NCBI GenBank assembly: GCA_001792115.1
Contig: MGFX01000001.1
Coordinates: 304,705 to 368,704 of the forward strand
Direction of reading: 5' to 3'
Source of the DNA: Candidatus Woesebacteria bacterium RBG_16_42_24
Lineage (GTDB): Bacteria; Patescibacteriota; Microgenomatia; UBA8517
DNA length: 64,000 bases
Shown here: piece after piece, positions 4,487 to 62,554 of the stretch
How positions within the stretch are numbered: the stretch's first letter is position 1
Layout: each line of letters opens with the position of its first letter
The notes under the pieces: generated by a model
What the model saw: only the letters and a program-made list of their open reading frames with translations
Databases searched by the model: none
Told to the model about the DNA's origin: nothing
Position numbers and translations under genes: made by a program

Positions 4487-5209
4487 TTAGGGGAAAATTA
4501 GGAATTTCAAACCAATTAAGAGTAAAAACATTGAAATTACCGTTCTGAATTTTGCTTGAGGAATTCTGTTTACTATTTTTTTTGCAATCCAAGCCCCCAA
4601 GAAAGAAGCGGGAATAAAAGCAAGAAGACCCAAGGTAAGAGAGTGATTGATTCTTACTCCCCCCAGAAAATAGGTGCTTATGCGGGAAGCATCAATTGCA
4701 AAACCAGTGAGTCCCGAAATAAAAATATAAGCAGATTTGGGTAGGTTAAAGGCCGTTAAAACAACACTCCTTAAGGCCCCGCCACCTACTCCAGAAATTC
4801 CTCCCAAAAAACCTGATCCGGCTCCCCCGATCCCAGCCGTTAACATATTATCTTTAAGTTTGAAATCTGGCTTGAAAAATAAATAGACAATATAGACCAA
4901 AAGGATTAGTCCGACAAATCTGGAAAGAAGCACTTCGGGAAGGGTAAGTGCCATTCGCGCCCCGATATAAGCCATAATAATCCCGGGAAGGGCAAAGAAG
5001 AAGAGAAGTTTTGCATCAAATCCGTGTTTGAAAAAATACATTTTCCAAATGTCCCCGAACCAGTGAATAACTCCTACAAGAAGAAGCGTCTCTGGCAAGG
5101 GGAGAAAAAGTAGAACCACAGGAACCATGATGGTTGAAATTCCAAACCCGGTAATTGTTCCCACGATTCCGGCAAGGAATGTAAGGACAGTGAGAAATAA
5201 GATTTCCAT
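4487..5209 (-). CDS. TSUP/TauE-SafE family membrane transporter
   Basis: 240 aa, polytopic. Two-repeat architecture with GxGGG-like motifs typical of DUF81/TauE proteins. Confidence 0.65.
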   Translation of the reverse strand: MEILFLTVLTFLAGIVGTITGFGISTIMVPVVLLFLPLPETLLLVGVIHWFGDIWKMYFFKHGFDAKLLFFFALPGIIMAYIGARMALTLPEVLLSRFVGLILLVYIVYLFFKPDFKLKDNMLTAGIGGAGSGFLGGISGVGGGALRSVVLTAFNLPKSAYIFISGLTGFAIDASRISTYFLGGVRINHSLTLGLLAFIPASFLGAWIAKKIVNRIPQAKFRTVISMFLLLIGLKFLIFP

Positions 5210-5325
5210 TTATTAGGGTCTCTTGATGACATCCTCCCCGCGAGGATGACATATCAGCGTTCAATTCATTTCCAGGCCCAGAGCCTGGAGTTTTCTTGAA
5301 TGCTGTTATAAAATATACCAGAATT

Positions 5326-5396
5326 CGGGGTGTAGTTTAACGGCAGAATGCGCGGCTGGGGGTCGTGCGGTCTGGGTTCAATTCCCAGCACCCCGA
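5326..5396 (+). tRNA. tRNA-Pro (anticodon GGG)
   Basis: Hand-folded cloverleaf. Acceptor CGGGGTG/CACCCCG, T arm CTGGG-TTCAATT-CCCAG, anticodon stem CGCGG/TCGTG with loop CTGGGGG (U33, GGG, G37). CCA is not encoded. Confidence 0.7.
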
Positions 5397-5438
5397 CATA
5401 GAAAGAAAGCTAAACCGTAAAAGGTTTGAGGGTGTAGC
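5394..5438 (+). repeat. direct repeat copy 1 (cgacatagaaagaaagctaaaccgtaaaaggtttgagggtgtagc), overlapping the last 3 nt of tRNA-Pro
   Basis: Near-identical copy at 6915-6960, differing by 1 indel and 2 substitutions. Read directly in the sequence. Confidence 0.7.
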
Positions 5439-5674
5439 TTTGAGTAATTACCGCTTCGTAGAGCAAAACTATTACCTCGCATTGCTTGATAATGATTTAC
5501 TCTTCTTTTACGCTCAATCGCTAAGTTACCACAAATTGTATTTATCTGCCCTTTTGTAGATTCTGGAATCCTTGTAGAAGGGTCGCTTGAAACTTTCGGC
5601 TGATTATCTAATTCATTCGGCTGGTCATTATCCATGACCTTAGTATATCAATATCCTGAAAGTCGTTAGGTTAA

Positions 5675-6262
5675 TTACTTTGAAGGAAAAATATCATCTG
5701 AGGTATTGTATTCGCCATCGGGGCCTAAACTTCTAAGTTCATACGATTGTCCATCATCAGAAACCTTGTAGTAAAATGGCTTCATATAGTGGTCTGAGGG
5801 AAACACAGTATATCCATCCTTTGATAGTTCCTCTAGAGTTTGAGGATAAGTCCCATTTTTCTTTTTGTATAGCTCCAAATACCCAGCATTTTGAGTCAAA
5901 ATTTGTTCGCTCGCTTGCTTTTTGGGTGCGTCAAATGGTCCCCCCTTTGCAACAAAACCAAAATAGAATAGTGAACCATACATAACAATGCTAAATAAAA
6001 TACCTAGAACTCCTAAAATTATTCCAGCAATTGCTAATTTTTTACCACCAACACCACCCTTTTTTATTTTTGAAAGTCCAATGGCTCCCAAAATAATAGC
6101 AATTATTCCCGTAAGAACACCCAGTAATGGCATGAATGATACTAGTCCTAGTATAAAACTAGCAATCGCTAATCCAGATTTAGGAAGTTTTTCTGGTTGT
6201 TGGGACACTAATGGTTGATTTTGAGGAGTTACCACTGGTTGAGTACTTGTGTCAATTGTCAT
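5675..6262 (-). CDS. membrane protein with a DUF4190-like N-terminus and a type II secretion GspG/pseudopilin-like C-terminal domain
   Basis: 195 aa. Two TM helices (GLAIASFILGLVSF...GIILGVLGILFSIV), then ...LELYKKKNGTYPQTLEEL...YELRSLGPDGE, which resembles GspG C-domains. Lies between the two direct repeats. Confidence 0.45.
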   Translation of the reverse strand: MTIDTSTQPVVTPQNQPLVSQQPEKLPKSGLAIASFILGLVSFMPLLGVLTGIIAIILGAIGLSKIKKGGVGGKKLAIAGIILGVLGILFSIVMYGSLFYFGFVAKGGPFDAPKKQASEQILTQNAGYLELYKKKNGTYPQTLEELSKDGYTVFPSDHYMKPFYYKVSDDGQSYELRSLGPDGEYNTSDDIFPSK

Positions 6263-6914
6263 ATTTCATTAGGTAAATAATTACTACTATTTTAGTAAAT
6301 CAAATTCATAAACATAATGCAACAGATTTCCATTATTGAAATCAGATCAATCCTGAAATCGTTAAGCTTAAAAAAAGTTAGAGTTTAACTTTTTATCAAT
6401 TGTCTAGAACTTATAGACTTTTTAACTTTAACTTACTAGGTACTTAGACTATTTGGAATTCAAACAGATTTAAGTACCTTTGTGTACTTTCACCCCATAC
6501 TTAATAGGTATTAATATAGCTCAACTACCTACTTCCTTAAATTACTTGGCTTTTTTAATTCCTCGTTTAAGTCAATTCTATTACCTTGATTGTCTGTAAT
6601 ACTGGTTGCGTTTTGCTCGGCTTCTGGGGATTTGGTATCTACCGACTGCAGTTCACTCATGAGTTGAGTTAATGCCTGAACTGTGTTTTGGTCAACATTT
6701 GAAATTACACTTTGTTCGTTTGTGGCGTTTTATTGCTGTTGAGTTACAATTTGCTGATTATCAGTAGACATAATTGATTGTATTATGGCGGATTTGATCT
6801 GGATTTTGTATCGGTTCAGAGGTCAAAAGTCGTGTATCAAAGGTGTCTGGTTGCCAGTGTGTTAAAATTGATTGCACAAGAGGCGATAAATGTTCAAACT
6901 TTGTCGCTTCTTCG

Positions 6915-6960
6915 CGACATAGAAAGAAAGCTAAAGCGGTAAAAGGTTTGAGGGTATAGC
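6915..6960 (+). repeat. direct repeat copy 2
   Basis: See copy 1 at 5394-5438. Immediately upstream of the GC-rich esterase gene. Confidence 0.7.
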
Positions 6961-6985
6961 ATACTGTATAGTGTAATACTAGCTT

Positions 6986-7999
6986 ATGAAAAGAGGATCC
7001 GTGCCTGCCGTTACCGCAATTTTTCTTATTTTTCCTCTCCTTCTAATTGGCTGGTTGGTGCTACGCTCAGGCAGAATGTCTGGTTTCTTGAGGAGGTGGA
7101 GACAGAGGCAAACCCAACCCACACCTGCAATCAGCCCCAAACCCGGCGAGGGTCAATTTGACAAAACGGAAAATATAGAAACATTAAAAGACATTACCTA
7201 TCGCACAGTCGACGGACAAACGCTCACCTTCGACATTTGCCGGCCCAAAGGATTGAGTAGCAAACGGCCTGCCATCATTCTCACCCATGGCGGCGGTTTT
7301 CGCACCGGTTCCAAGTACTCTCTCTACCCCGAATGTCAAGATTTGGCCAAGTTGGGATATATTGCCTTTACCCTTGACTACCGCTTAGCGCCAAAGTACC
7401 CGTATCCTGTTCAAATCGACGACGTTCAGTATGCAGTGCGCTTTATCAAGGCCAATGCCGACAAGTACCTGATAGACTCTTCGCGTCTGGGTTCGCTCGG
7501 CGGCTCAGCCGGAGGGTATTTAGCCAGCATTTTAGGATTGATGGACACGCGTGATCCCAGCCAAGGATTATCCAACTTTAGCAGCAAGGTGCAGGTGGTA
7601 GTTAACCGTTTTGGAGTACCCATGGACATGGCCGATCCAAATTTGGTCAGGAGTGACGCTCAAACCGCCGCGTTCCAGGAGGAGATCCTGGGGGATTGGC
7701 TTAAAGGGTACGAAATAACCGATGCTTTATACAAAGAGATTTCTGCTGTTACCTACGCATCTTACGACGATGCACCAATGTTCGCGCTCTATAGCGTCAA
7801 TGACCAATTGGCGCTGCAGTCGCAAGGTCAACGCATTGTTGATGCCCTTAAAAAAGTGGGGGTAGCGGCAGAATTTGAGCCTTTTAATGGTAAAGGCCGT
7901 GGACACGGCTACGACAACGCCGCTCCGGCTGAAAAAACACGCATCTGGAATCTACAGATGGAATTTTTGCGCCGGTATTTACCCCCTATACAATCTTGA
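6986..7999 (+). CDS. alpha/beta-hydrolase fold esterase/lipase (hormone-sensitive-lipase-like family) with an N-terminal membrane anchor
   Basis: HGGGF oxyanion motif and a GGSAGG (GxSxG) nucleophile elbow. 337 aa. GC content is visibly higher than the surrounding sequence. Confidence 0.75.
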   Translation: MKRGSVPAVTAIFLIFPLLLIGWLVLRSGRMSGFLRRWRQRQTQPTPAISPKPGEGQFDKTENIETLKDITYRTVDGQTLTFDICRPKGLSSKRPAIILTHGGGFRTGSKYSLYPECQDLAKLGYIAFTLDYRLAPKYPYPVQIDDVQYAVRFIKANADKYLIDSSRLGSLGGSAGGYLASILGLMDTRDPSQGLSNFSSKVQVVVNRFGVPMDMADPNLVRSDAQTAAFQEEILGDWLKGYEITDALYKEISAVTYASYDDAPMFALYSVNDQLALQSQGQRIVDALKKVGVAAEFEPFNGKGRGHGYDNAAPAEKTRIWNLQMEFLRRYLPPIQS

Positions 8000-8038
8000 A
8001 GAGGAAATCGTAACTGGGGTTTTCCTCTTGCAATTTTT
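7999..8038 (+). terminator. Rho-independent terminator after the esterase gene
   Basis: 9-bp stem AAGAGGAAA/TTTCCTCTT followed by GCAATTTTT. Confidence 0.5.
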
Positions 8039-8064
8039 CCTCGGAAGTTGTACAAGATAGCGCA

Positions 8065-9156
8065 ATGGCAAAGAGGAAAAAAGTTGAGACCAAAGCTCCG
8101 GTTCAAAAATCCGAAGGATCTTCGCAAAAACTTCAGGCGATAAGGCTCGCTATGGAGCAGATTGAGAAGCAGTATGGTCGGGGTTCAATTATGAGGCTTG
8201 GTGAGCGGGGAGACGCTCGACTCAAAATTGAAGTAATTCCAACCGGATCAATCGCGCTTGATTTGGCACTAGGAGTTGGGGGATTTCCCAGAGGACGCAT
8301 CGTTGAAATATATGGACCAGAAGCCTCAGGGAAAACAACAATTGCTCTTTCCGCTATTGCCGAGGCTCAAAGAAAAGGAGGCCAGGCAGCATTCGTTGAC
8401 GCCGAGCACGCTCTTGACCCGGCTTGGGCGGAGAAAATTGGAGTGAACCTTGACGATCTTTTAATGTCCCAGCCCGATACAGGCGAGCAGGCTTTGGAAA
8501 TTACGGAAACCTTAATCCGCTCGGGGGCTCTTGACGTAATTGTCGTTGACTCGGTTGCCGCCCTTGTCCCCAGGGCGGAGCTTGAGGGGGAGATGGGAGA
8601 CGCGGTGATGGGGATGCAGGCGAGACTTATGAGTCAGGCTTTAAGAAAACTTACGGGGGCAATTTCTAAGTCCAAAACGGTTCTAATATTCACTAACCAA
8701 TTAAGACAAAAAATCGGAGTTATGTTTGGGAATCCGGAAACGACACCGGGTGGATTGGCGTTAAAGTTTTATTCATCCATTAGACTCGATATAAGAAGAA
8801 TTGAAGTACTAAAAGACGGTGAAGCAGCGATTGGCTCGAGACATAGGGTGCGAGTTGTTAAAAATAAGGTAGCACCTCCTCTAAAGATAGCGGAACTTGA
8901 TATTATGGCCGATAAGGGAATTTCTCGCTCCGGCGGACTTTTAGACGTTGCGGTTGAATTGGGCTTGATGAGTAAAAGCGGATCATTCTTTAATTTTGAT
9001 GGGAAACCTTTGGCTCAGGGAAGAGAAGGAGCAAAAGCTTTTATTGAGGAACACACAAAATTTGCGGAAGAGATAGATAAAAAAATCCGCGATATGGTAG
9101 CCTCTGGGATAAAGCTTCCGAAAGAAATCGGCGAAGCCGAGGGTAAAGATTCTTAA
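8065..9156 (+). CDS. recA: recombinase RecA
   Basis: 363 aa. Walker [10 protein letters not shown], and [20 protein letters not shown]. Canonical RecA throughout. Confidence 0.95.
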
Positions 9157-9208
9157 GTAGTTGTCTTTCACTTAATATCTTTATATCTTAATATCGTAGT
9201 ATCAAACG

Positions 9209-9832
9209 ATGCCTTCTATAACCGCTATTAAACCCCAAAAGAACGGCAGGAGAGTCAATATTTATTTGGACGGTAAATTCGGATTCGGGATAGACATTGA
9301 GAATTTTGTAAAACTTGGACTCAAGGTTGAACAAGAGCTTTCTGATACAGAAATTGAGGGAATAGTTAAAAAAGCGGAGTTTCTAAAGACGCTGGATAAG
9401 CTCTTAAGGTTCGGAACCTTAAGGCCAAGAAGCGAGAAAGAGCTAAAAGATTGGCTTAAAAGAAAGAAAGTGCACGAGAGTTTGACCGAGGAGCTCTTTA
9501 ATCGATTGAACCGATTGGATTTGGTGGACGATAAAAAATTTGCCGAGTGGTGGATTGACCAGAGACAGAATTTCCGTCCAAAAGCGAAAAGAATATTGAA
9601 TATGGAATTAAGAATGAAGGGGATTAGAAAGGAAATAGTTAAAGATGTTTTGGATAGGCTTAAAATTGATGAAGAGAAAATTGCGAGAGAGCTTCTTGAG
9701 AAAAAGTTATACCGTTGGAAGAATCTTCCGAAATTAGAGAAAAGACAGAAAATGGGACAGTTTTTGGCGAGAAAAGGATTTGGGTGGGAGATAATTTCTA
9801 AATTGATAAAAGATTTTTCTTTTGAAGAATGA
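9209..9832 (+). CDS. recX: RecA regulator RecX
   Basis: 207 aa helical-repeat protein directly downstream of recA. RecX-like repeats (DD..FAEWW...RGF). Confidence 0.7.
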   Translation: MPSITAIKPQKNGRRVNIYLDGKFGFGIDIENFVKLGLKVEQELSDTEIEGIVKKAEFLKTLDKLLRFGTLRPRSEKELKDWLKRKKVHESLTEELFNRLNRLDLVDDKKFAEWWIDQRQNFRPKAKRILNMELRMKGIRKEIVKDVLDRLKIDEEKIARELLEKKLYRWKNLPKLEKRQKMGQFLARKGFGWEIISKLIKDFSFEE

Positions 9833-10312
9833 ATTCTGCTTGTTTTCTACTTACCCAAAAAGTTATTGTCCATTTCTTACTTGCCTAAGAAATGGACGAA
9901 AGAAGGGCACCCATTTAAATTATCCAGGTTTTCTTCGCTAAAGCTCATACTATACCGCTAAACTTAGCACTCGAGTGCTGCGGACAATAGCGGTATTACA
10001 AAAGAATTCGTTCAACTCATCAAAACTGGAAATTTATGGGGTTAGAATCAAACTTCAAATGCGTTTGACGATGAAAGGCAAAAATAGTAAAATTACCTTT
10101 GGAGTCGAAGAAATCATGGGAAAGAATCCAATTTACGATTCTTCTTTCGCCAACCGCGTTATTTAGCGGTTGAGTATTCTTTGCTCCTATAGAATCAGTT
10201 TATCGGGTTCCCGGTAAATCGGATTTCAGTTAATCAGTTGTTCGGGTTAAATATCCAACAAACCGACAATCCGAGATCTGATAACTGACAAGCTGAAAAA
10301 CTGAATTATATT

Positions 10313-50410: not shown

Positions 50411-51769
50411 ATGGATGATATTCGAACCCGTTTTGCCCCAAGCCCAACAGGCCCACTTCATATTGGGGGACTTCGTACCGCGCTTTATTCTTACGCCCTA
50501 GCGAAACACGACTCCGGCGATTTTCTGTTAAGGATTGAGGATACTGATAAAAAACGTGAGGTTCCGGGAGCTAAGGAGAAAATTCAAGAACTCCTTAGAG
50601 AGTTCGGTCTTATATGGGACGGGGAAGTAGTTATCCAATCAAAAAGAGTCGAAGAAGGGGTTTATAAGAAGCTGGCCGAGAAATTGGTTAGCGAAGGACA
50701 CGCCTTTTACTGCGATTGTAAAGCCAGAAACGCCAAAGAAGAGGGATATTCAAAAGACCTTCGCGACCCGTGCCGTGATAAAGGGAAAGCTAGCGGCGCA
50801 ATTAAACTGAAAGTTCCCGATGGAGAAAAAATCGCATTTACCGATTTTGTTTTGGAGAAGGAGGTTTTTTGGGACTCATCGACAGTTTCCGATACAACCC
50901 TTCTTAAATCCGACGGATTTCCCACCTATCACCTGGCGGTTGTAATTGATGATAATGACATGGGAATTACCCACGCCCTAAGGGGGCACGACTGGATGCC
51001 GTCAACCCCCATACACCTTTTAGTCTATAAATATTTGGGTTATAAATTACCCGAAATCGGGCACTTGACCGATATTTTAGATCCCGAGGGAGGAAAGTTA
51101 TCTAAAAGGAAAGGGAGTACCTCGGTTGAGGCACTCCTTAATGAAGGATATCTGCCCGAATCCATACTAAACTTTGTAATGCTCCTTGGCTGGGCGCCGA
51201 AAGACAATCGTGAACTTTTTAGCCTGCAAGAGTTTGTCAAAGCATTTGACCCCAAAGGTTTCCAAAAATCAAACCCGGTCTTTAACCGAGATAAACTTGA
51301 TTGGTTCAACGGACATTATATTCGTCAACTTGCAGCTGACGAATTAAACTCAAAACTCAAAGCTCAAAACTCAAAATTTGCAGGTTTGGACAAAGAAAAG
51401 CAATTCGCAATTTCAAATCTTGTTCGGGAAAGGATAAATAAGCTTTCGGATTTTGACGAGCTGGCTGGGTTTTTCTTTGAGGAAAGGAAACCTGACATTA
51501 AACTATTCGGACCTAAACATAGGGAGCACCTGCAATCCGCCAACGAAGTTTTAGAAAAAGTTGAGAATTGGGAAAAGGAAGAGATTGACCAGAAGCTTTT
51601 GACTCTAATTAAGGATAAAGAATTCAAAACAGGGGATTTTTTTATGGATTTAAGAGTTGCAATTTGCTCAAGTAAGATTACTCCACCAATAAACGATTCA
51701 GTTGTAATTTTAGGAAAAGAAGAAACAATAAGGAGAATAAGAAAAGTTTTATCTAGCTTGACGAACTGA
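50411..51769 (+). CDS. gltX: glutamyl-tRNA synthetase
   Basis: HIGH motif (PTGPLHIGG) and KMSKS motif (KLSKRKG). 452 aa. Contains an in-frame CTCAAAA repeat stretch (NSKLKAQNSKF). Confidence 0.9.
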   Translation: MDDIRTRFAPSPTGPLHIGGLRTALYSYALAKHDSGDFLLRIEDTDKKREVPGAKEKIQELLREFGLIWDGEVVIQSKRVEEGVYKKLAEKLVSEGHAFYCDCKARNAKEEGYSKDLRDPCRDKGKASGAIKLKVPDGEKIAFTDFVLEKEVFWDSSTVSDTTLLKSDGFPTYHLAVVIDDNDMGITHALRGHDWMPSTPIHLLVYKYLGYKLPEIGHLTDILDPEGGKLSKRKGSTSVEALLNEGYLPESILNFVMLLGWAPKDNRELFSLQEFVKAFDPKGFQKSNPVFNRDKLDWFNGHYIRQLAADELNSKLKAQNSKFAGLDKEKQFAISNLVRERINKLSDFDELAGFFFEERKPDIKLFGPKHREHLQSANEVLEKVENWEKEEIDQKLLTLIKDKEFKTGDFFMDLRVAICSSKITPPINDSVVILGKEETIRRIRKVLSSLTN

Positions 51770-52783: not shown

Positions 52784-53110
52784 ATGTCAAAACTATACTA
52801 CGACCATTTAGTAGTTTTGGATGAGGTCGAAGCTGAGATTAAAAAATCTACCAAAACTTTGGAGGAAAAAGAGGAACTTTGGAAAGTGGTGGATGAAACT
52901 ATCCACCACAGGGTAATGGGATGTGTTCTTGATAAACTCCCCAGAGAGCACCACGAGGAATTTTTGCATAAATTTCATAAAGCACCCCACGATGAAAGTC
53001 TTATAGATTACCTAAAAGAAAAAGCCGGGGAAAATATAGAGGAGCTAATTCGCCAAGAAATAGGAAACCTCGCATTTGAGCTACTCCAGGAGATTCGAGG
53101 TAAGAAATAA
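52784..53110 (+). CDS. hypothetical protein, possible antitoxin partner of the downstream DUF4258 gene
   Basis: 108 aa, acidic. Its stop overlaps the downstream start (TAATG). Confidence 0.35.
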   Translation: MSKLYYDHLVVLDEVEAEIKKSTKTLEEKEELWKVVDETIHHRVMGCVLDKLPREHHEEFLHKFHKAPHDESLIDYLKEKAGENIEELIRQEIGNLAFELLQEIRGKK

Positions 53111-53463
53111 TGGACAAAAACTTCGGCGGAGTAATTTGGACAAACCACGCACTTGATAAACTTAGCGAGCGCGGAATTAAACAAGGGGACGCATGGGCGA
53201 CATTCAATCGGCCTGAACAATCGCGAGCAGGTAGCGCCAAAGGCTCATGGATATATTACAGAACATACCCCATTTCGTCGAGACTTCGAGGGGCAGGTGG
53301 AAATGAAAGGATAGAGGTTGTTGCGACCAAAAATGAAAAAGGGGAATGGGTTATTCTTTCCGTTTGGAGTCGGCCGGTATATGGAAGCCGGGGAGAGAGA
53401 GCAAAGTCAGAAAAGAGAGAACCTATTTGGAAAATGATGGTAAGGCAAATTTTGGGAAGATGA
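53110..53463 (+). CDS. DUF4258-like (putative toxin-family) protein
   Basis: 117 aa. WTNHALDKLSERGIKQ...IEVVATKNEKGEWVILSVW matches the DUF4258 pattern. Confidence 0.4.
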   Translation: MDKNFGGVIWTNHALDKLSERGIKQGDAWATFNRPEQSRAGSAKGSWIYYRTYPISSRLRGAGGNERIEVVATKNEKGEWVILSVWSRPVYGSRGERAKSEKREPIWKMMVRQILGR

Positions 53464-53576
53464 GCGAAGAATTTGAGGATTCATGTATGATAAGATGATA
53501 TATCATCATATCATCATCTTCGAATTAGTTAATTAAACTATATTTCTTCTAGTAAAACTAATAAAAAAAAGAGCTA

Positions 53577-53689
53577 GCGCCTGAGGGAAAAGATGAGTTT
53601 GGGAGTTGAATGTGGTTGCGACCACGGCTTAGTGTTGCTGGTCGCAAACACTTCAACTCTTCACTCGCCCTCAGGCGCCCTTTTCTTAT
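53577..53689. repeat. long imperfect inverted repeat (about 45-bp arms) forming a large hairpin at the low-GC/high-GC boundary
   Basis: Arm GCGCCTGAGGG...GAGTTGAATGTGGTTGCGACCAC pairs with GTGCTGGTCGCAAACACTTCAACTC...CCCTCAGGCGCC. The hairpin is followed by CTTTTCTT. Confidence 0.5.
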
Positions 53690-53729
53690 ACAGATTTGGC
53701 TTAGAGCCCTTTTGCGGAAGTTTTCTCTG

Positions 53730-54077
53730 CTAGACCAGGCGGTTCAGGAGTTCCACGATACCGAGGATCAGACCGACAAAGAACAATAGCCCACCGAGGG
53801 CCATTACGATCATTGCTCCGATATGGCCTCGAAAGAACGCAGAGAACCCCGAATTCCTGGAGGTGGAAAACACCCTCATCATGTTGAAGCCGGCGAAAAC
53901 GAAGGCACCAAAGCCGATGACGAATCCGCCTATGACAAGAACGAGCCAAGTGGACCTCGCGATCCTCCTCTTTCTGGGTTCGTGCTGAATCGGACAAGTC
54001 CGACCGATAACGGGGTCGGCGGTTAACCAGGGTTTGGTAACTTCCCGGTCAGCCTTGCGCGCATCAGTGCGACGCAA
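53730..54077 (-). CDS. hypothetical GC-rich small membrane protein
   Basis: 115 aa. Two C-terminal TM helices. Visibly higher GC than the neighbouring genes. Confidence 0.3.
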   Translation of the reverse strand: MRRTDARKADREVTKPWLTADPVIGRTCPIQHEPRKRRIARSTWLVLVIGGFVIGFGAFVFAGFNMMRVFSTSRNSGFSAFFRGHIGAMIVMALGGLLFFVGLILGIVELLNRLV

Positions 54078-54329
54078 GCCTGATATGAAGCCGAGGATCC
54101 TCCATAACCTCCGGTCTGACTGATGACAAAGTATCTGTCAAGTTCTTTGTTTGAAATCGTGTTGTCTCTGACAGCGGGCCAGAACACACCTGGATTATCC
54201 AGGTTTCGTACCAAGATCGGGTATTCCTTTTTGAAGTACTCCTGGACCGAGCTGTACATGTCAACCTCCCTGGTCGATAACGGGGTCCTTGTCAGCTTTC
54301 GCTGCCTATTGCAAGTGCTCAGCTCAAGA

Positions 54330-54551
54330 CTAGGGTAGAGCTGGGAATGCCGGCAAAGCACCAATCAGGAAAATGAAAGTACCTAACAGAAAGGTGATCA
54401 TTACCAAGATAGTGATTTTCGATTCCATGAAATGGAATGGTCTATCGAAAAATACTCTGCCCAAACCATAAATCAGGTAGGGTATGAACACGAAGACCGC
54501 TCCCATAACGAGTACCCCTCCAACATAAAACAAAATCTCAGAGATAGACAT
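54330..54551 (-). CDS. hypothetical small membrane protein
   Basis: 73 aa with two TM helices. Confidence 0.3.
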   Translation of the reverse strand: MSISEILFYVGGVLVMGAVFVFIPYLIYGLGRVFFDRPFHFMESKITILVMITFLLGTFIFLIGALPAFPALP

Positions 54552-54735
54552 TTCCCACCTCCATGGGATTGAGCAGGCATAGGTTGCCTTCGAATGGATA
54601 GCGCGCTGGACACTAAAAAAATGTCCACGGTGCTACCCACTCGAAACATATTTCCGCAACTTGTCAAAGTACAAGAAGCCCAAGTCTATCAAAAATCTTA
54701 TCCAAATTCAAGCTATGGGGTATTCTGACTCACCT

Positions 54736-55531
54736 AATGTACTTTGCAAGGCGAGGCCTTGCGAAGCTAAAACTAGTCGATTGCGAGTTCCGTAATAGAA
54801 GAATTTTTCGTAATAGAGCCCAATACGAATTTTTCGTAAGACAGATTCTTATTAGTTTTCGAAAAGAAAGTTAAAATATTTTTGGTATATAGCCATTTTG
54901 TAGTTCTTAATCTCAAGTATTCTGGTAAAGAAGACGGACAACTATTTAGAGTCCACAAGGCCTCGCCTTGATGAACATGGAGAGTTTGTCGTTTTGCTCC
55001 AATGGGATTTCTATGTATATAGGCCGAAAGATGTAGAAGTTGTTCATCGTTATCAACAAGTACAGCCTTATACACACCTTGGTAAAGTGGTCCCACTCGT
55101 TGATATTTACGATTAAAATACATAACATATCTTGTGTTGATTGAATTCATGAATTCATCGATTGCACCGCGCGATTTTTGCGATAAAAGTAGATGGAAGT
55201 GGTTAGGCATCAAACAGTAACAATGAAGCGTTATCTCTTGATAAAAATTATTGAGACGAAGTTCTTTAATTAATCTATCCTTTTCTCTCCATGTTGTAGA
55301 TAGTGCTGCTATCTTTTGTTGTATTGACTTTTCGTTTTTGGGTAAAAGGTAAGTTTTTAAATAAGACAGGAAAACCCCACTATCTTGTGTGTCGCAGAAA
55401 ATAACTCTTTTTTCTACACCGCGGTTATAGATATGGTAATAGCTATTTGAAACGTAATTCTTACGAGTGTTTTTTCCAGGCATATCGGTATAATATATTG
55501 AGTATTTTAATTTCGCAAGGCGAGGCCTTGT
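54736..55531 (-). mobile_element. IS200/RAYT-like element with flanking REP-like hairpins
   Basis: Hairpin GCAAGGCGAGGCCTTGC appears at 54745-54766 and again at 55513-55531. The complementary-loop variant CAAGGCCTCGCCTTG occurs inside the gene (about 54959-54973). Confidence 0.5.
54773..55483 (-). CDS. IS200/IS605-family / REP-associated tyrosine transposase (RAYT)-like Y1 HUH transposase
   Basis: HUH motif in HCYCLMPNHFHLLL and tyrosine motif AYIHRNPIGA (compare YIxNQ/YIHxNP). 236 aa. Confidence 0.75.
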   Translation of the reverse strand: MPGKNTRKNYVSNSYYHIYNRGVEKRVIFCDTQDSGVFLSYLKTYLLPKNEKSIQQKIAALSTTWREKDRLIKELRLNNFYQEITLHCYCLMPNHFHLLLSQKSRGAIDEFMNSINTRYVMYFNRKYQRVGPLYQGVYKAVLVDNDEQLLHLSAYIHRNPIGAKRQTLHVHQGEALWTLNSCPSSLPEYLRLRTTKWLYTKNILTFFSKTNKNLSYEKFVLGSITKNSSITELAID

Positions 55532-55563
55532 GATACTCGAGGCTTCAAGACGAGAGAGTATAA

Positions 55564-55953
55564 TTGGATGGAGATAAGGATATGAAAGGATTTAGCGGAA
55601 ATATCGAAGAATTAACCGAAAAGAACGAGTTTTTTCGCCAAGTTATTTTTACCGCTCCCCACAGTCAGCTTGTTTTGATGAGTCTAAAACCCAAGGAAGA
55701 AATTGGGGAAGAGGTCCACGACGTTGACCAGTTTTTTAGATTTGAAGAAGGGGAGGGAAAGGTGATTATAGACGGGGTGGAATCGGTGGTTAAAGACGGC
55801 TGGGCGGTAGTCGTTCCTGCGGGAGCCAGACACAATGTCATTAATACTTCCGAAACCCAGAGCCTAAAACTTTATACGATTTACTCTCCAGCTCAGCATC
55901 CGGAAGGTACGATTCATAAAACCAAAGAAGAGGCGCTTGCCGCGGAAGAATAG
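55564..55953 (+). CDS. cupin domain protein
   Basis: 129 aa. Cupin motifs (H...E...G and PAGARHNV). Confidence 0.65.
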   Translation: MDGDKDMKGFSGNIEELTEKNEFFRQVIFTAPHSQLVLMSLKPKEEIGEEVHDVDQFFRFEEGEGKVIIDGVESVVKDGWAVVVPAGARHNVINTSETQSLKLYTIYSPAQHPEGTIHKTKEEALAAEE

Positions 55954-55961
55954 GAGCATCG

Positions 55962-56240
55962 CTATCGGCCGAAGGCTTTTCTAAGTTCAACCTTGGCATC
56001 CTCAAGAATTTTTTTCTGTTTGGGCCCAAGTTTATTCCCAGCACGGTTAATGTAGAAATTAAGCATACTCATTGCCGAAGCATACGGCTCGGCCTTTCTT
56101 CTTAGGGAATTTTCTGCGGAGTTCTTAAGAGATTCGGCTATTTTTTTGGGGTTATCCCAAGTAAAAACTCCTTCTTCAAGGTCCAGGGCAATAGAGGTTT
56201 TGGTTACTTCTCCCGACCAGTTCTTTTTGCCGACTGTCAT
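55962..56240 (-). CDS. DUF3175-like protein
   Basis: 92 aa. SAMSMLNFYINRAGNKL motif. Confidence 0.45.
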   Translation of the reverse strand: MTVGKKNWSGEVTKTSIALDLEEGVFTWDNPKKIAESLKNSAENSLRRKAEPYASAMSMLNFYINRAGNKLGPKQKKILEDAKVELRKAFGR

Positions 56241-56308
56241 TCTTTAACTGCGAACCGTGGATTTATGGTGAGTTTTATCGAACCACAAGTTCGAACCTAT
56301 TTTATAAG

Positions 56309-56686
56309 TTATACTCCTCTTTCTAGCCGAACGTTTATAATCCTCGATCTAACAATAGGTTTATCATTCTTATCTACAAGAACAGCATAAATTTGATGAT
56401 CAACACCACCAAGGGTACAGCCTGTAAAGTTCCACTTACCGTCTTTTAGCGCTTTTCCTAAAGCCTGGGGGTAGTCTCTATCGGTTCTAATAACAATTAA
56501 AATTTTCCCCCTCCTGCTATCCTCAACTACTCCTGACACTATAATTTCTTTTTTGCTTTTTCCTAAATCTGTAAAGAAAGATTGATTATTAACTGGAGAA
56601 TCAATTTTAACTTCAGCGCTTTCTTTAACAGATTCCAACCACCCTTTATAACTTAAGTCAGGTGAGCGAAAATCTCCAATTGTCAT
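56309..56686 (-). CDS. hypothetical protein
   Basis: 125 aa ORF with no motif recognised. Confidence 0.35.
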   Translation of the reverse strand: MTIGDFRSPDLSYKGWLESVKESAEVKIDSPVNNQSFFTDLGKSKKEIIVSGVVEDSRRGKILIVIRTDRDYPQALGKALKDGKWNFTGCTLGGVDHQIYAVLVDKNDKPIVRSRIINVRLERGV

Positions 56687-56815
56687 TGTTCCTATTTTAC
56701 CAAATTAATGAGTCCTTAAGAAAGCTTATCTTCGCTACGGGCTATAGCACTGAGGGAGCGAAGCGAATCGAGGTGCTGGGTAGGTTGGCCTAGAACCGTT
56801 TGTGCCCATAAGCGC

Positions 56816-57652
56816 TTATATTATTCTGTTGCCGCCGCCAACGAAAAACCTCTGACCCGTAAGCCATCTTGCTTGTTCAGACGCCAGAAAAACCGCAACG
56901 TCAGCAATATCTTCCGGATGGCCAATTCTTCTTAAGGGATTATTTTGTGCGTTCGCTTCCTCCACTTTTTTTGACATCCATCCGGTCTGTATTGGACCAG
57001 GCCCAATAATATTTACTGTAATACCGTATTTCCCCAATTCTACAGCTGCTGCTCTACTAAAGGCTTCGGTCGCGGCCTTACTGGCACCATAGGAGATTTC
57101 TGTTGGAAAACAATCGGCCCAGTCTGTACTGATATTTATAATCCGACCCCAATTTGCTTTTCTTGAAACATGACGGCTAACAAACTCCTCCATCAAAAAC
57201 ACCGGAGCCGTCGTATTAACCGCAAAATGGCGCTCATATTCTTTCAGTGTAATGGGATCTGAAGTAGCACCTGTCTTTTTCTCGACAAAATTTCGTGGTT
57301 CAAAAGTGTCTGGATTACAATAAGCGGCATTATTTATCAAAATTTCTACCGGTCCAAAAACTTTCTCTGTTTTATCAAAGAGCTTTTTAATTACAGAAAA
57401 ATCAGTTAAATCTGCCTCCATTGCCTCAGCCTCTCTACCACTTTTACGAATTTCACTGACAACTCTGTCCGCGGATTGACTCTGATTTTTTATATAGGCA
57501 GATTCTCTCCACTTATCAATATTAGATGACCTTAAATAAGTGATGAAAACCTTAGCGCCTTGTTTGGCAAGAGCTTTAGCAATTGCCGCACCAATTCCAT
57601 GGTTGGCACCTGTAACCAAGACTACTTTATTTTTGAGAAGAGGATCTATCAT
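56816..57652 (-). CDS. short-chain dehydrogenase/reductase (SDR) family oxidoreductase
   Basis: TGANHGIGAAIA cofactor-binding motif and a YGASKAA catalytic Tyr/Lys pair. 278 aa. Confidence 0.85.
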   Translation of the reverse strand: MIDPLLKNKVVLVTGANHGIGAAIAKALAKQGAKVFITYLRSSNIDKWRESAYIKNQSQSADRVVSEIRKSGREAEAMEADLTDFSVIKKLFDKTEKVFGPVEILINNAAYCNPDTFEPRNFVEKKTGATSDPITLKEYERHFAVNTTAPVFLMEEFVSRHVSRKANWGRIINISTDWADCFPTEISYGASKAATEAFSRAAAVELGKYGITVNIIGPGPIQTGWMSKKVEEANAQNNPLRRIGHPEDIADVAVFLASEQARWLTGQRFFVGGGNRII

Positions 57653-57837
57653 ATTACTATTTTAACAGTTTTAATTATACAGTTTGCGCGAGAGCTGCGG
57701 GAATAAGTCTACTTTGACTTTTGTATGTTCCCTCGTGCTGCTACACTCGGGATCTCGGCAACGCCTTGCCTCGAGCTGAGCGGGCTATAGCCCCGAGCCC
57801 GGTCGAGGGGCCGGTCTAGGACCTATTGGGATCATGA

Positions 57838-58347
57838 CTATTTGGGTTCACTAAAGTAAAGAATTGTCAGTTCCCTACCGCAATAAATCGGAATATCTAA
57901 TGGTGAATGTTCGCACAGCATTCCTCCTAAGCCCCATCTAGACCGAATCCTACCATTTTCAGTTATCCTACCAAGATGAACCGTCGATCTGCTTCTGGTA
58001 TTGAAATAAATTGCTACATCACCTATTTTAGGGGAGTTTCTAATCTCCCAAGAGGAGATTACTTTTGTAAGAATATCTCTTGGATATATTGATGGTGGAA
58101 AAGCGGTTTCATAACAGCTCTCACCCACAGCGCTTTCTTTCTCAACAACTTCAATGCCCATTTTCCAAAGACCGGTGTAGTTATGAGCTGTAACAAGTTC
58201 ACTAATTGCATTTCTACGCGAATCTAGTTCTAAATCTGAAAATGCTTGTGTTTCTGTCATTTGCTGTGGGACTTGGATTCCCCATATAACTTTTACTTCT
58301 CGCCACGAACTTAGTTTGTGCGCTCGAAGAGCAAGCATACGGGGCAA
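57838..58347 (-). CDS. hypothetical protein
   Basis: 169 aa ORF adjacent to tRNA-Gln. Confidence 0.35.
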   Translation of the reverse strand: MPRMLALRAHKLSSWREVKVIWGIQVPQQMTETQAFSDLELDSRRNAISELVTAHNYTGLWKMGIEVVEKESAVGESCYETAFPPSIYPRDILTKVISSWEIRNSPKIGDVAIYFNTRSRSTVHLGRITENGRIRSRWGLGGMLCEHSPLDIPIYCGRELTILYFSEPK

Positions 58348-58388
58348 GCGAACCAGGATTAACAGGTTCTTGCCCGCTAGGGCCTGAG

Positions 58389-58459
58389 CTGGGAGGCTTG
58401 GATTCGAACCAGGATTCTACGCTCCAGAGGCGTATGTCCTACCGTTAGACGACCTCCCA
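58389..58459 (-). tRNA. tRNA-Gln (anticodon CUG)
   Basis: Hand-folded on the minus strand. Acceptor UGGGAGG/CCUCCCA (U1:A72, G73 as in bacterial tRNA-Gln), D stem GUCU/GGAC, anticodon stem UACGC/GCGUA with loop CUCUGGA, T arm CCUGG-UUCGAAU-CCAAG (one C-A mismatch). Confidence 0.65.
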
Positions 58460-58648: not shown

Positions 58649-59203
58649 ATGCTAGCTGAAATACGAAATGGGGATTTGACTGGCTTATTGCAGCGAAGGG
58701 CTGAGTCGCAAAGTCAAGCAGCCAGAGAGAAAGACTTTAGACAACAAGTATACGAAAGAATTAAGGGCGTTTTAAGCAAGGCAGAGAAAATATTGAATAA
58801 CTTTTCTGTTGTTCCCCCCGAGAGGGGAGGCGACCCCGGTCGTGTTTCACAGCCGCACCGTTTAAGCCCCCCAGTTTCTTTTACAAATGAAAATCAAGTA
58901 GTACAAGTGAGACTTAGGGAGTTGGTGCAAGGCCACGGTTACAAAACCAGACGCTACTTGATGGACCCCGATCATGCCGAAGAGGCTCGTTCGAGGTATG
59001 GCGTACGTGTTGAGCTGGTTGATGATTCTCTTCCCCAAGGAGATAGAATCCTTTTTGATCTACACCCCCACATGATTAAGACTTGGGATGGCAGACAACT
59101 GCAATGGAGGAAAGGCGAAGCTCCCGACCTTCATGAGATTGAAGTAGTAGAGATGCTTGTTGAACAGATAGGGAAGAAACTTCCTACACCTCAAAGGGTT
59201 TGA
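58649..59203 (+). CDS. hypothetical protein
   Basis: 184 aa. Moderately GC-rich. No motif recognised. Confidence 0.35.
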   Translation: MLAEIRNGDLTGLLQRRAESQSQAAREKDFRQQVYERIKGVLSKAEKILNNFSVVPPERGGDPGRVSQPHRLSPPVSFTNENQVVQVRLRELVQGHGYKTRRYLMDPDHAEEARSRYGVRVELVDDSLPQGDRILFDLHPHMIKTWDGRQLQWRKGEAPDLHEIEVVEMLVEQIGKKLPTPQRV

Positions 59204-60416: not shown

Positions 60417-60496
60417 ACTCTAAATCTTACACAAAAAATATGAAAGTGGAAAGATTGATTATTATGGGGTGAAAGAGTATACTTTCCGAGCCTAGA

Positions 60497-61308
60497 TTGG
60501 GTGGGCGACCCGGTTTGGGTGAACATTTACACAGCTTCGAAATACAAATCCTTGATAAGGGAAAGGGAGATACAGCCGTGACAGCACAATCGGGTCGTTT
60601 CTCGAATGTCAGAACGAGGGCCGTACAGCTCTGGAAGGCTATCAAGATCGCAGGGGTTGTCGTGTTGGCTGGCTTTGCTCTTTTTGGGGCAGGGACGGCC
60701 TACGCCGAGACCCGACCTAAGGAACCCGTCGACCCGTATGCCCAGATCCGGCAGGTTTCAGGACTTGCCGTCGACATTGGGCAAGAGGGGAAACCCCTCG
60801 ATGGTGTGCCAGATCTTCTGGTTGTGGTCACCAGGGTGACAGGAGTTCTCGAGAACATCGATGACGGGACCTTCACTCTGCAAGTGGAAGCGGTGACCAT
60901 ACCCCCTTTACCATAGCACCGCCCGAACCGGTTGCTGAGTCCATCTCTGCCGCTGGCTCAACAGCTCAATCTGGAAATTACGTCCAGGTTCGGGTCTCGC
61001 ACTACTGGCCTCCATGGGGTCGGCGCAACTGCCTGATCTACATAGGGGATCCACCAAACGGTACTTGCGTGAGCAAGGTTTGGGAAGGAACCCAGGAGTG
61101 GGAGCAATGGGCGTTAGTTGGAATTGCCTGCCCAATGGAGTGGGAGCTTGGGACACGGCTTGTAATTGCCGGCCGTGAATGGACCTGCATGGACCATGGA
61201 GGAGCAACTGTCTACCAAGACGATATCCCGTGGATCGACATGCTGACCCCCGAGCTTCTATTTCCCCACGGAACAATCGTGGAAGCAACTATCTATCCGC
61301 CTAACTAA
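60497..61308 (+). pseudogene. 3D-domain (MltA-like) secreted protein gene apparently split by a frameshift
   Basis: ORF 60497-60916 (frame 2; TM helix/possible signal peptide IAGVVVLAGFALFGAGTAYA) ends at 60916. Frame 1 is open from 60865 with no ATG/GTG until GTG 61069. Frame 1 encodes ...VSHYWPPWGRRN...MDHGGATVYQDDIPWIDML, a 3D domain. GC-rich patch. Confidence 0.4.
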
Positions 61309-61393
61309 CGAAGCTGTCTCGCCCGGGGGCGAAATTGACCCAATACAGGTTGAAAGTAGCCCCCATCACGTTTCTTGTATACTTAAGTAGGTT

Positions 61394-62554
61394 GTGAGAA
61401 GTTTAATTATCTTCCTAATAATTTTATTGGTGGTTCTTACCGCAGGCTATTTTTTTGTAAAGAACAAGTTAGGCATTAACCCCCAGGTCGCTGTCTCCCT
61501 TATTAATCCTCCCAAAACTGAATATATAAAATTGGGTCCTCAAGGGGAGGATTTGCCGTTCCCGCTAACAGTTCCCGAAGGCTATCAAATTGGTGTTTTT
61601 GCAAAACTTGAAGGAGCCCTTCCTAGGGTTCTAGCTATTGATCCTGCCGGAGTACTATTTGCCTCGGTTCCGGCAAGAGGAAGAATACTGGTATTACCTG
61701 ATAAAGATAAAAACGGGATTGCAGATAACGTAATGGTAATTCTCTCCGGACTTAATAGTCCCCATGGAATAGCATTTGCCGACAATAGTTTGTACGTAGC
61801 CGAGACAGACAAGGTAGTAAGATACGAATACGACCAACAGAACTTTCTAACGGGAAGGCAAGAAACCCTTTTTACATTGCCAACAGGCGGAAGACATTTC
61901 ACCCGGACAATACGAATAATCGGTGGAAAGCTCTACACTTCAGTTGGGTCCCCTTGTGATACATGTCGCGAGAACGACGAGAAACGCGCTGCGATGCTTG
62001 TTTCCGATTTGGACGGCAAAAATTTAAGAGTGTATGCTCGGGGTTTAAGAAACACTGTTTTTTTTGTGGAGGGGGCGGGCGGGATTATCTGGGGGACAGA
62101 TATGGGAAGGGACTTTTTGGGTGATAATCTCCCCCCCGACGACATAAACATTATCGAGGATGGGAAAGATTACGGATGGCCATTCTGTTATGGAGATAAA
62201 ATTAGGGATTCTAAGTTTGAGCCGGGACAAAATGCCGATTACTGCTTAGGAACTACCCCTCCTGTATTTGCTCTCCCAGCCCACGTTGCCCCTTTGGGAC
62301 TAACTTTCATGGACGGGGACCTATTGGTTTCCCTGCACGGGTCTTGGAATTCGTCTGTTCCCGTCGGCTATAAGGTTGTGAGGTTGAATGTTGAGGGACG
62401 AAAAGTTTCAAATATGGAGGATTTTATAACCGGGTTTATTAAAGGGAGCAGCGTATCGGGAAGACCGGTAGACTTGATTGTTGACGGTGACGGGAGGCTT
62501 TTTGTTTCAGACGATAAAGCAGGCTTAATCTACGTGATAACCAAAACCGAATAA
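61394..62554 (+). CDS. PQQ-dependent/soluble aldose sugar dehydrogenase family (GSDH beta-propeller, YliI-like)
   Basis: N-terminal TM helix, then a propeller with LNSPHGIAFADNSLYVAETD, GGRHFTRTI, DGKDYGWPFCYGD and LHGSWN motifs. Confidence 0.7.
   Translation: MRSLIIFLIILLVVLTAGYFFVKNKLGINPQVAVSLINPPKTEYIKLGPQGEDLPFPLTVPEGYQIGVFAKLEGALPRVLAIDPAGVLFASVPARGRILVLPDKDKNGIADNVMVILSGLNSPHGIAFADNSLYVAETDKVVRYEYDQQNFLTGRQETLFTLPTGGRHFTRTIRIIGGKLYTSVGSPCDTCRENDEKRAAMLVSDLDGKNLRVYARGLRNTVFFVEGAGGIIWGTDMGRDFLGDNLPPDDINIIEDGKDYGWPFCYGDKIRDSKFEPGQNADYCLGTTPPVFALPAHVAPLGLTFMDGDLLVSLHGSWNSSVPVGYKVVRLNVEGRKVSNMEDFITGFIKGSSVSGRPVDLIVDGDGRLFVSDDKAGLIYVITKTE

Follow-up and report, generated by a model that had tools for sequence, protein, structure and literature searches.

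What kind of system is formed by a small gene for a Y1/HUH protein and the palindromes around it, and did it arrive together with its surroundings as a genomic island? The question is raised by a window of 64,000 nucleotides (the whole stretch of DNA analysed; contig MGFX01000001.1, positions 304,705 to 368,704) from Candidatus Woesebacteria bacterium RBG_16_42_24, a member of the Microgenomates within the Candidate Phyla Radiation (CPR), and more precisely by the interval 53464–58459, which runs from the end of a DUF4258-like gene to a tRNA-Gln gene. An initial annotation, made from the sequence alone, had read this interval as one horizontally acquired island targeted to tRNA-Gln, and had taken the Y1 gene within it for an enzyme of the REP-associated tyrosine transposase (RAYT, or TnpA-REP) type instead of an ordinary IS200 transposase, REP being the repetitive extragenic palindromic sequences that such enzymes act upon. 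In the present study the RAYT/REP-like interpretation proved right in kind, and the interpretation as an acquired island at tRNA-Gln is weak. The best explanation is a REPtron-like locus at about 54746–55531, in which a single-copy, RAYT-like, class-2 Y1 gene is accompanied by three cognate hairpins of its own, placed over the −35 box, in frame past the catalytic tyrosine and behind the stop codon respectively, the whole lying in a variable interval instead of one island. A probability of roughly 0.6 is given to this explanation. The features of the locus are as follows.

54773–55483, minus strand: RAYT-like Y1/HUH gene, 236 aa (PF01797, E 5e-10)
54746–54762, no strand: downstream hairpin (D), GCAAGGC-GAG-GCCTTGC, exact, 10 nt past the stop codon
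54955–54971, no strand: internal hairpin (I), two mismatches, in frame as CAA GGC GAG GCC TTG = Q172–L176 (QGEAL)
55515–55531, no strand: upstream hairpin (U), GCAAGGC-GAG-GCCTTGT, one mismatch, 31 nt before the ATG
55490–55518, minus strand: predicted sigma-70-type promoter, TTGCGA-17-TATTAT (consensus scan, 9/12)

The Y1/HUH protein

The Y1 HUH transposase reading frame with its YIHRNP motif, as first described, was borne out by the profile check, the match to PF01797 (Y1_Tnp) scoring 40 bits against a gathering cut-off of 23. The protein carries the motif YYHIYNRG, an HUH motif in the form NHFH (H95, H97), the catalytic Tyr155 within YIHRNP, and a C-terminal PSSLPEY tail; the HUH motif and the catalytic tyrosine are invariant among 30 aligned homologues. 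The signature Y---NP is that of class-2 TnpA-Y1 (TnpA-REP-like) proteins, and IS200 transposases have Y---Q (Quentin et al. 2018, PMC6006769). Judged by this motif, YIHRNP places the protein, as a putative member, in class 2 TnpA-Y1. An AlphaFold2 model (pLDDT 85) has as its best fold match in the PDB (Foldseek) the complex of the E. coli RAYT with a REP hairpin (4ER8; E 5e-5, TM-score 0.61 on the target), followed by the ISDra2, IS608 and IS200 transposases, the top matches having probabilities of about 1.0. A sequence profile search of the PDB returned ISDra2 TnpA as the only match, and a weak one. No helix-turn-helix domain was detected in the protein by Pfam, and no tnpB gene lies near the Y1 gene.

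The gene is present once in about 83 kb of this genome (the 64-kb window and about 19 kb of adjoining DNA). The same gene order surrounds it on 22 of 22 contigs from metagenomes or metagenome-assembled genomes (MAGs), which come from many samples, and the contigs of this species are all more than 99.6% identical.

Three hairpins and a predicted promoter

The palindrome CAAGGC-GAG/CTC-GCCTTG is found at three sites, against 0.12 expected by chance, and at none elsewhere in the 64 kb. The initial annotation had seen it on both sides of the gene and, with a complementary loop, inside the gene; all three copies are present at coordinates slightly shifted to those listed above, and their interpretation as cognate, REP-like elements is supported. 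Folded as single-stranded DNA they reach −5 to −10 kcal/mol (D, −7.9 for the sense and −10.1 kcal/mol for the antisense strand; U, −5.4 and −7.2 kcal/mol). Hairpin D is preceded, on the sense strand of the gene, by the family foot TTAGCTTCG, and is without a T-run. Hairpin I, with a loop complementary to those of U and D, sits in the linker between Tyr155 and the PSS motif, where the model has a low-pLDDT loop (166–170) and then a short helix.

Of the predicted promoter, the −35 box falls within the 3′ arm of U and the −10 box stops 6 nt short of the ATG. A similar arrangement was found in 35 of the 72 family loci scored, in which the −10 box ends 5–6 nt before the ATG and the −35 box (TTGCAA, TTGCGA or TTGACA) is in or next to the hairpin arm, being either formed by the arm or following it. 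A −10 box that ends so close to the start codon implies a leaderless mRNA, and from these sequence features we infer that the Y1 mRNA is leaderless and that U would exert its effect as DNA, perhaps as a site of autoregulation.

Positions of this kind could also be expected if the palindromes were gene-local regulatory elements and not substrates of the Y1 protein, acting either as double-stranded operators of a dimeric regulator or as RNA stem-loops for attenuation, mRNA stability or termination. The near-perfect cores and the unconserved orientation of the loops are what would be expected of double-stranded operators, U overlaps the −35 box, D stands at a terminator-like position, and there are no further copies in the 83 kb. 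However, the transcript appears to be leaderless, and U, being located in its promoter or upstream of it, is not part of the mRNA; the missing T-run at D does not suit a terminator. Solo copies and tandem arrays occur far from any Y1 gene (see below), the type of hairpin is specific to each paralogue, as in RAYT–REP pairs, and the closest structural relative of the protein binds exactly such hairpins. Purely regulatory palindromes are judged improbable.

The three-hairpin layout across the gene family

More than 7800 homologues of about 230 aa were found. In species-representative genomes there are at least 577 family loci, nearly all of them labelled Microgenomates/Patescibacteria, with one to three diverged copies per genome, and in 78 of the 80 loci fetched the Y1 reading frame is intact. 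Paralogues within a genome are each only 48–57% identical to the query protein and have different hairpins (e.g., the sets L026/L050/L085 and L042/L045/L054); no near-identical pair occurs among the 80 loci.

The architecture was counted in the 78 loci with enough flanking sequence, U lying 10–100 nt upstream of the ATG, D 0–30 nt past the stop codon, and I, often present, within the gene. At least 10 nt are shared between U and D in 63 of the 78 loci, between U and I in 51, and among all three in 34. Sharing of 12 nt or more between U and D is seen in 61 of the 78 comparisons within a locus but in 5% of non-self pairs, and for I against the flanks the corresponding values are 46/78 and 5.5%. 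The three-hairpin layout is a trait of a large Microgenomates/CPR gene family, and the hairpins evolve in concert within each locus, their sequence being locus-specific and the same within the locus.

The internal copy lies between the catalytic tyrosine (aa ~155) and the PSS motif in all 44 loci that have one, and it stays in frame (e.g., TTA GCC TCG CAA GGN = L-A-S-Q-G). Could it be a by-product of coding for a conserved Q-G-x-A-L peptide, its resemblance to the flanks being a coincidence? The motif [QK]G.AL does recur often in the family alignment, and GGC...GCC is a palindrome by nature, but the encoded peptide varies with the hairpin (L A L P S Q A W in L058, K G - T F in L078), so that constraint on the protein does not explain the palindrome. 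The word that the internal copy shares with its own flanks has a median length of 15 nt, compared with 8 nt for the flanks of other loci, and four loci (L084, L088, L092, L093) have a second in-frame copy. A coding by-product is thus most improbable. The second copies, which lie at aa ~50–62 in another loop of the protein, suggest repeated colonisation of permissive loops instead of a single ancient insertion. A foot, TTAGCYTCG (core TAGCYTCG), is common to many hairpin copies (about 30–45%), and a symmetrical extension is also common.

Many of the GTDB representative MAGs that carry a Microgenomates-type Y1 gene (L015–L094) are titled 'uncultured Gammaproteobacteria' or 'Dehalococcoidia'; these titles are probably placeholders or mis-binned labels.

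Hairpin copies away from the gene

In other genomes of the family, 23 extra cognate copies were found in 531 kb of flanking sequence. At L068 (5580–5951) five tandem 68-nt units, each with an inverted pair of the cognate hairpin, form an array like those of REPINs or bacterial interspersed mosaic elements (BIMEs), at a distance of about 0.9 kb on the downstream side of the Y1 gene; the same locus has another, different hairpin pair at about 6040–6090. Metagenomes were also scanned for the 17-mer. Among the matches listed, 43 of 80 loci have a GC content of at least 0.50, and as these make up about half, many are probably chance matches. Also among the matches listed are CPR-like contigs on which a hairpin with the same foot stands alone, the nearest 5–10 kb being free of Y1 genes, and an 858-kb contig on which two copies occur that have 40 nt of context in common.

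These data bear on a more familiar explanation, that of an autonomous IS200-like insertion sequence. U and D would then be subterminal end hairpins, the unit of about 790 bp would have transposed whole into the interval between the DUF4258-like gene and the cupin gene that follows it, and the family would have spread by transposition and horizontal transfer. The locus shares with IS200/IS605 elements (IS608, ISDra2) the Y1 HUH fold, matching hairpins that bracket the gene within 10–60 nt as in IS200/IS608, and presumably a chemistry on single-stranded DNA. The unit lies in DNA that is missing from the relative L097 (see below), family members stand in unrelated contexts across genomes (e.g., L012), several genomes have two or three copies, and ISDra2 TnpA is the one sequence-level match in the PDB. 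On the other side, IS200 elements are multi-copy and near-identical, have the Y---Q motif and a TnpA of about 150 aa, and often carry tnpB, none of which is seen here. There are no near-identical copies in any genome of the 80 loci, the paralogues being about 50–57% identical to the query with differing hairpins; the Y motif is that of class 2; and the protein has 236 aa with a conserved C-terminal tail. The identical context in the 22 contigs from many samples, the solo hairpins and the tandem array that lack a gene, and the RAYT as best fold match also argue against an insertion sequence, which is regarded as unlikely.

An allelic patch that begins at the internal hairpin

Among the contigs of this species, L011 carries a divergent patch within the Y1 gene.

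54883–54955 (= L011 7457–7529), minus strand: allelic patch, 13 substitutions in 73 nt

Over 17.6 kb, L011 is otherwise identical to the window but for one single-nucleotide polymorphism and one 14-nt indel. The patch begins at the first base past the core of the internal hairpin, and of its substitutions five fall in synonymous and eight in non-synonymous codon changes. The single change of a third allele falls in the same 73-nt stretch. The patch resembles a short stretch replaced by gene conversion, with the hairpin as its boundary. The idea that the sequence downstream of the internal hairpin is hypervariable in general was considered and rejected, as ten other protein clusters at 90% identity show scattered variation only, and without such a concentration in those clusters the L011 patch is a single suggestive event.

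The in-frame hairpin might be a working site at which the enzyme acts on its own gene. Strand exchange would there be templated and primed by the hairpin, and a domesticated HUH enzyme would in this way subject its own gene to conversion or switching. This idea draws on the identity of the copies within a locus, the occupation of two permissive loops and the start of the 73-nt patch at the hairpin edge, and it is offered as a long shot. Separately, the 14-nt deletion of L011 lies in the gene for glutamyl-tRNA synthetase (GluRS) at 51349–51362, where it splits the gene into two calls (338 and 127 aa), and is either an assembly error or a strain variant.

Proposed mechanism and points against it

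How might a RAYT-like enzyme and its three hairpins work together in a REPtron-like locus? By analogy with E. coli TnpA-REP and with the TnpA proteins of IS608 and ISDra2, we infer that the Y1 protein would bind the hairpin in single-stranded DNA and would nick and rejoin the adjacent DNA. Nicking and rejoining may seed and homogenise hairpin copies mainly in cis, around and inside the enzyme's own gene, and occasionally elsewhere, which would give rise to solo copies and tandem arrays. Binding at the copy that overlaps the promoter could bring about autoregulation.

Several observations weigh against a REPtron-like locus. The only NCBIfam match of the Y1 protein is the REP_Tyr_transpos equivalog (NF047646), at 44.3 bits and so below its cut-off of 80, the PDB profile search gave no sequence-level match to 4ER8, and the enzymatic activity of the family members is a predicted one. 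The promoter consensus matches in this region are not more numerous than expected by chance. The 5′ GT[AG]G guide tetranucleotide of canonical REPs is absent, although atypical REPs that lack GTAG have been reported for subclasses 2.6 and 3 (PMC6006769). The orientation of the U, I and D loops differs between loci, which is awkward for strictly strand-specific recognition of single-stranded DNA. The check for further copies that the initial annotation had proposed, on the ground that a REP family would be multi-copy, found no hairpin outside the Y1 locus in the 64-kb window and about 19 kb of adjoining host DNA, so that the dispersed REP population that typifies RAYT systems is not in evidence for this genome. 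Finally, the inserted state of the DNA around the Y1 unit, about 2.1 kb, rests on comparison with one fairly distant relative (L097; GluRS 69% identical), and it could equally reflect a deletion there.

Comparison with known systems

Among the closest counterparts is the E. coli TnpA-REP/RAYT REPtron (subclass 2.2, PMC6006769; 4ER8). Both have the HUH motif and a single catalytic tyrosine in Y---NP, a C-terminal tail with an SS motif, and a low-copy gene placed between its own cognate palindromes, each paralogue having its own palindrome type. The REPtron/RAYT pattern consists of flanking cognate palindromes, a low copy number and palindrome types specific to each paralogue (PMC6006769, PMC5581495). 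Unlike the E. coli system, the locus has the recurrent foot TAGCYTCG in place of a GTAG guide, a protein of 236 instead of 165 aa for which no similarity to 4ER8 is detectable at the sequence level, dispersed copies that are few or missing as against hundreds of REPs in E. coli, a hairpin in frame inside the gene, and a CPR host with a genome of about 1 Mb.

In-frame, 'double-foot' REPs inside tnpA-REP have been described for subclass 2.4 (Bertels group 4), which is found in Cyanobacteria and Bacteroidetes (PMC6006769). That subclass resembles the present family in the cognate palindrome that keeps the frame of the gene, in palindromes that often have symmetrical ('double-foot') extensions, and in its HuH motif (NH[IFV]H). 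Here, however, the main site lies after the Y motif, between the tyrosine and PSS, and the site at aa ~50–62 is the rare second one; the protein has 236 instead of about 194 aa, an SS tail is present, and the phyla differ. With subclass 2.1/TIRYT (PMC6006769) the family has in common its length (median 238 aa in that subclass), the NH[YF]H form of HuH, FQ/YQ replacing WQ, the motif Y[IV]H.NP and an SS motif in a proximal tail. A lack of REP-like structures and a distal helix-turn-helix domain are reported for subclass 2.1, whereas in the present family the cognate hairpins are the defining feature and the Pfam search detected no such domain.

CPR genomes lay outside the TnpA-Y1 survey of PMC6006769, most work on RAYTs has dealt with Proteobacteria and other phyla for which complete genomes exist, and no paper linking CPR/Patescibacteria with RAYT or TnpA-REP was found in the literature searched. 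In-gene REP insertion itself is already known from subclass 2.4. What is new here is the CPR lineage, the conserved site after the catalytic tyrosine, the non-GTAG foot, the overlap with the promoter together with an apparently leaderless start, and the fact that dispersed copies are all but missing, at least in this genome. The loci would make up a RAYT-like family of ultra-small CPR genomes that is very large and has so far gone unremarked, with a compact, highly regular layout and very few dispersed copies. The role of RAYTs for the cell is described as an unsettled question (PMC5581495, PMC6006769), and the family may offer a minimal natural system in which to study possible self-regulation through the hairpins, possible action in cis on the enzyme's own gene and the question of whether a large REP population is needed for function. 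A related possibility is that RAYT-type enzymes in CPR genomes of about 1 Mb work with almost no REP population, which, if true, would mean that what RAYTs do for the cell is distinct from the propagation of REPINs.

The interval between the DUF4258-like gene and tRNA-Gln

Did the Y1 locus arrive with its neighbours, as one island of about 5 kb at the 3′ end of tRNA-Gln, with the Y1, cupin, DUF3175 and short-chain dehydrogenase/reductase (SDR) genes as its load? The genes and the tRNA that enclose and follow the locus are these.

53110–53463, plus strand: DUF4258-like gene (Pfam, 23.5 bits; orthologues in L095–L097), the last gene of a conserved synteny block
55582–55953, plus strand: Cupin_2 gene, ATG at 55582 (Pfam, E 4e-15)
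55962–56240, minus strand: DUF3175 gene (Pfam, E 2e-40)
56309–56686, minus strand: hypothetical 125-aa gene, called on public contigs, no family match
56816–57652, minus strand: SDR gene (Pfam adh_short_C2, E 9e-49)
57838–58347, minus strand: hypothetical gene, 140–166 aa in public-contig calls, no family match
58388–58459, minus strand: tRNA-Gln(CTG), 3′ end toward the variable interval (ARAGORN, Rfam)

Much of what had been described for the interval stands, including the tRNA-Gln on the minus strand with its 3′ end facing the interval, and the cupin, DUF3175 and SDR genes, which Pfam confirms. The DUF4258 assignment holds with a reservation, since the gene scores slightly below the Pfam cut-off of 25 bits, and its orthologues in relatives are annotated as DUF4258. 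The composition was scanned in 400-nt windows (mean GC of the whole window 0.428, standard deviation 0.041). Within the claimed island, GC deviates by more than two standard deviations only at 53601–54300 (up to 0.55) and at 55101–55500 (0.33, the Y1 gene), and a sharp change of composition is therefore confirmed for these two sub-blocks. It does not extend over the stretch with the supposed cargo genes (55.5–58.4 kb), which is unremarkable in GC and has tetranucleotide z-scores of −1.1 to +0.4. As only two sub-blocks deviate, the claimed island is not a compositional unit.

Synteny was compared with three relatives (L095, L096 and L097), the GluRS of which is 69–72% identical to that of this genome. 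The block SecDF-CCA-RecJ-RelA/SpoT-AspRS-S11 peptidase-348aa-GluRS-~322aa-~110aa-DUF4258 (AspRS, aspartyl-tRNA synthetase) is kept in all three, and synteny breaks directly after DUF4258. DUF4258 and tRNA-Gln are only 63 nt apart in L096; in L095 they are separated by 4.4 kb that holds unrelated genes, and here the distance is 4.9 kb. In L095 and L096 tRNA-Gln(ctg) lies on the plus strand, opposite to its strand in the window. In L097 a cupin gene, 62% identical to that of the window, starts 14 nt past DUF4258. The comparison thus upholds a variable interval but not an insert that spans all of it, because the cupin, syntenic with DUF4258 in L097, is resident and not cargo, and this leaves only 53464–55565 (about 2.1 kb) as extra DNA relative to L097.

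Like tRNA-linked integrative islands, the interval is variable, differing in every relative examined, and adjoins the 3′ end of a tRNA, and the two sub-blocks of deviant GC would also suit an acquired island. The remaining evidence speaks against one. Such islands come with an integrase and an att repeat, and Pfam and NCBIfam scans of all reading frames of 53.1–59.2 kb found no integrase or recombinase besides the Y1 gene. A search for the 3′ end of tRNA-Gln (25-mer, up to three mismatches) returned only the tRNA itself; the sole partial repeat (15/18) lies 125 nt away. The composition is mostly native, at least one supposed cargo gene is syntenic in a relative, and the tRNA on the opposite strand in relatives points to rearrangement and not to simple integration. 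Targeting of tRNAs by the Y1 family was rejected as well, since 15 of 79 family loci have any tRNA within 4 kb, which is about the background rate. A single horizontally acquired island targeted to tRNA-Gln is accordingly held to be quite improbable, and the interval is best described as a variable, rearrangement-prone gap beside tRNA-Gln that consists mostly of ordinary resident DNA, with the REPtron-like locus in it.

The extra segment of about 2.1 kb

Besides the Y1 unit, the segment 53464–55565 contains an AT-rich palindrome, a large hairpin and a GC-rich block with three small genes.

53487–53514, no strand: AT-rich palindrome, 15-nt overlapping arms, 93% complementary (repeat search)
53577–53689, no strand: 113-nt near-perfect hairpin, −65 kcal/mol, z −7.8
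53730–53948, minus strand: gene for a small hydrophobic protein of ~72 aa, the C-terminal part of a 115-aa reading frame (53730–54077), in the GC-rich block
54023–54259, minus strand: gene for a 78-aa protein, called on public contigs, in the GC-rich block
54330–54551, minus strand: gene for a 73-aa hydrophobic protein (reading-frame list and public gene calls), no family match

The large inverted-repeat hairpin was correctly recognised in the initial annotation as real, and its role as the left border of an island is not upheld. It lies between the convergent DUF4258 operon and the minus-strand unit, followed by a T8 run on the minus strand and by the weaker T-rich stretch CCCTTTTCTT on the plus strand. 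Because of the T-runs on both sides and the place between convergent units, it is probably a bidirectional intrinsic terminator. A 23-nt repeat that had been placed at the same border is the AT-rich palindrome. A related hairpin, followed by T8, occurs at 7803–7905 of L012, about 100 nt upstream of a Y1 homologue (22-nt and 15-nt matches); L012 is a different Microgenomates genome from the same aquifer. BLAST found the large hairpin in none of the other 80 family loci, and for this reason, and as the T-runs fit a terminator, it was rejected as a component of the Y1 system. Neither the hairpins nor the GC-rich block match an Rfam family.

The three small minus-strand reading frames of the GC-rich block are probably real genes. 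Residues 44–115 of the 115-aa reading frame match 49 proteins of about 75 aa (phmmer), and the 78-aa protein has a 77-aa homologue, 67% identical, in an unrelated context, beside YfhO glycosyltransferase genes in L216. Two of the three proteins are hydrophobic and of about 73–75 aa, and on inspection their sequences suggest the membrane proteins that had been proposed for all three. Conserved partnership with the Y1 gene was considered and rejected, as no homologues were found in about 200 loci and the single homologue of the 78-aa protein lies elsewhere.

Composition elsewhere in the window

Of two further GC-rich patches that had been noted downstream of the tRNA, that at 58649–59203 does not rise above noise in GC, and that at about 60480–61310 is real, 60501–61400 being the most GC-rich patch of the window (0.58), with reading frames overlapping on both strands. 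The patch of 60.5–61.4 kb has no Pfam or Rfam match, and a frameshifted 3D-domain gene that had been placed there is not supported, as the reading frames of 60.5–61.3 kb have no Pfam match at E ≤ 0.1. The strongest composition outliers of the window are at 5–9 kb and 60.5–62.5 kb (tetranucleotide z up to 3.7). At 5000–10000, by tRNA-Pro(ggg) (5326–5397), tetranucleotide z is 2.1–3.3 and GC swings from 0.29 to 0.53, and this region is a better compositional candidate for an island next to a tRNA than 53464–58459.

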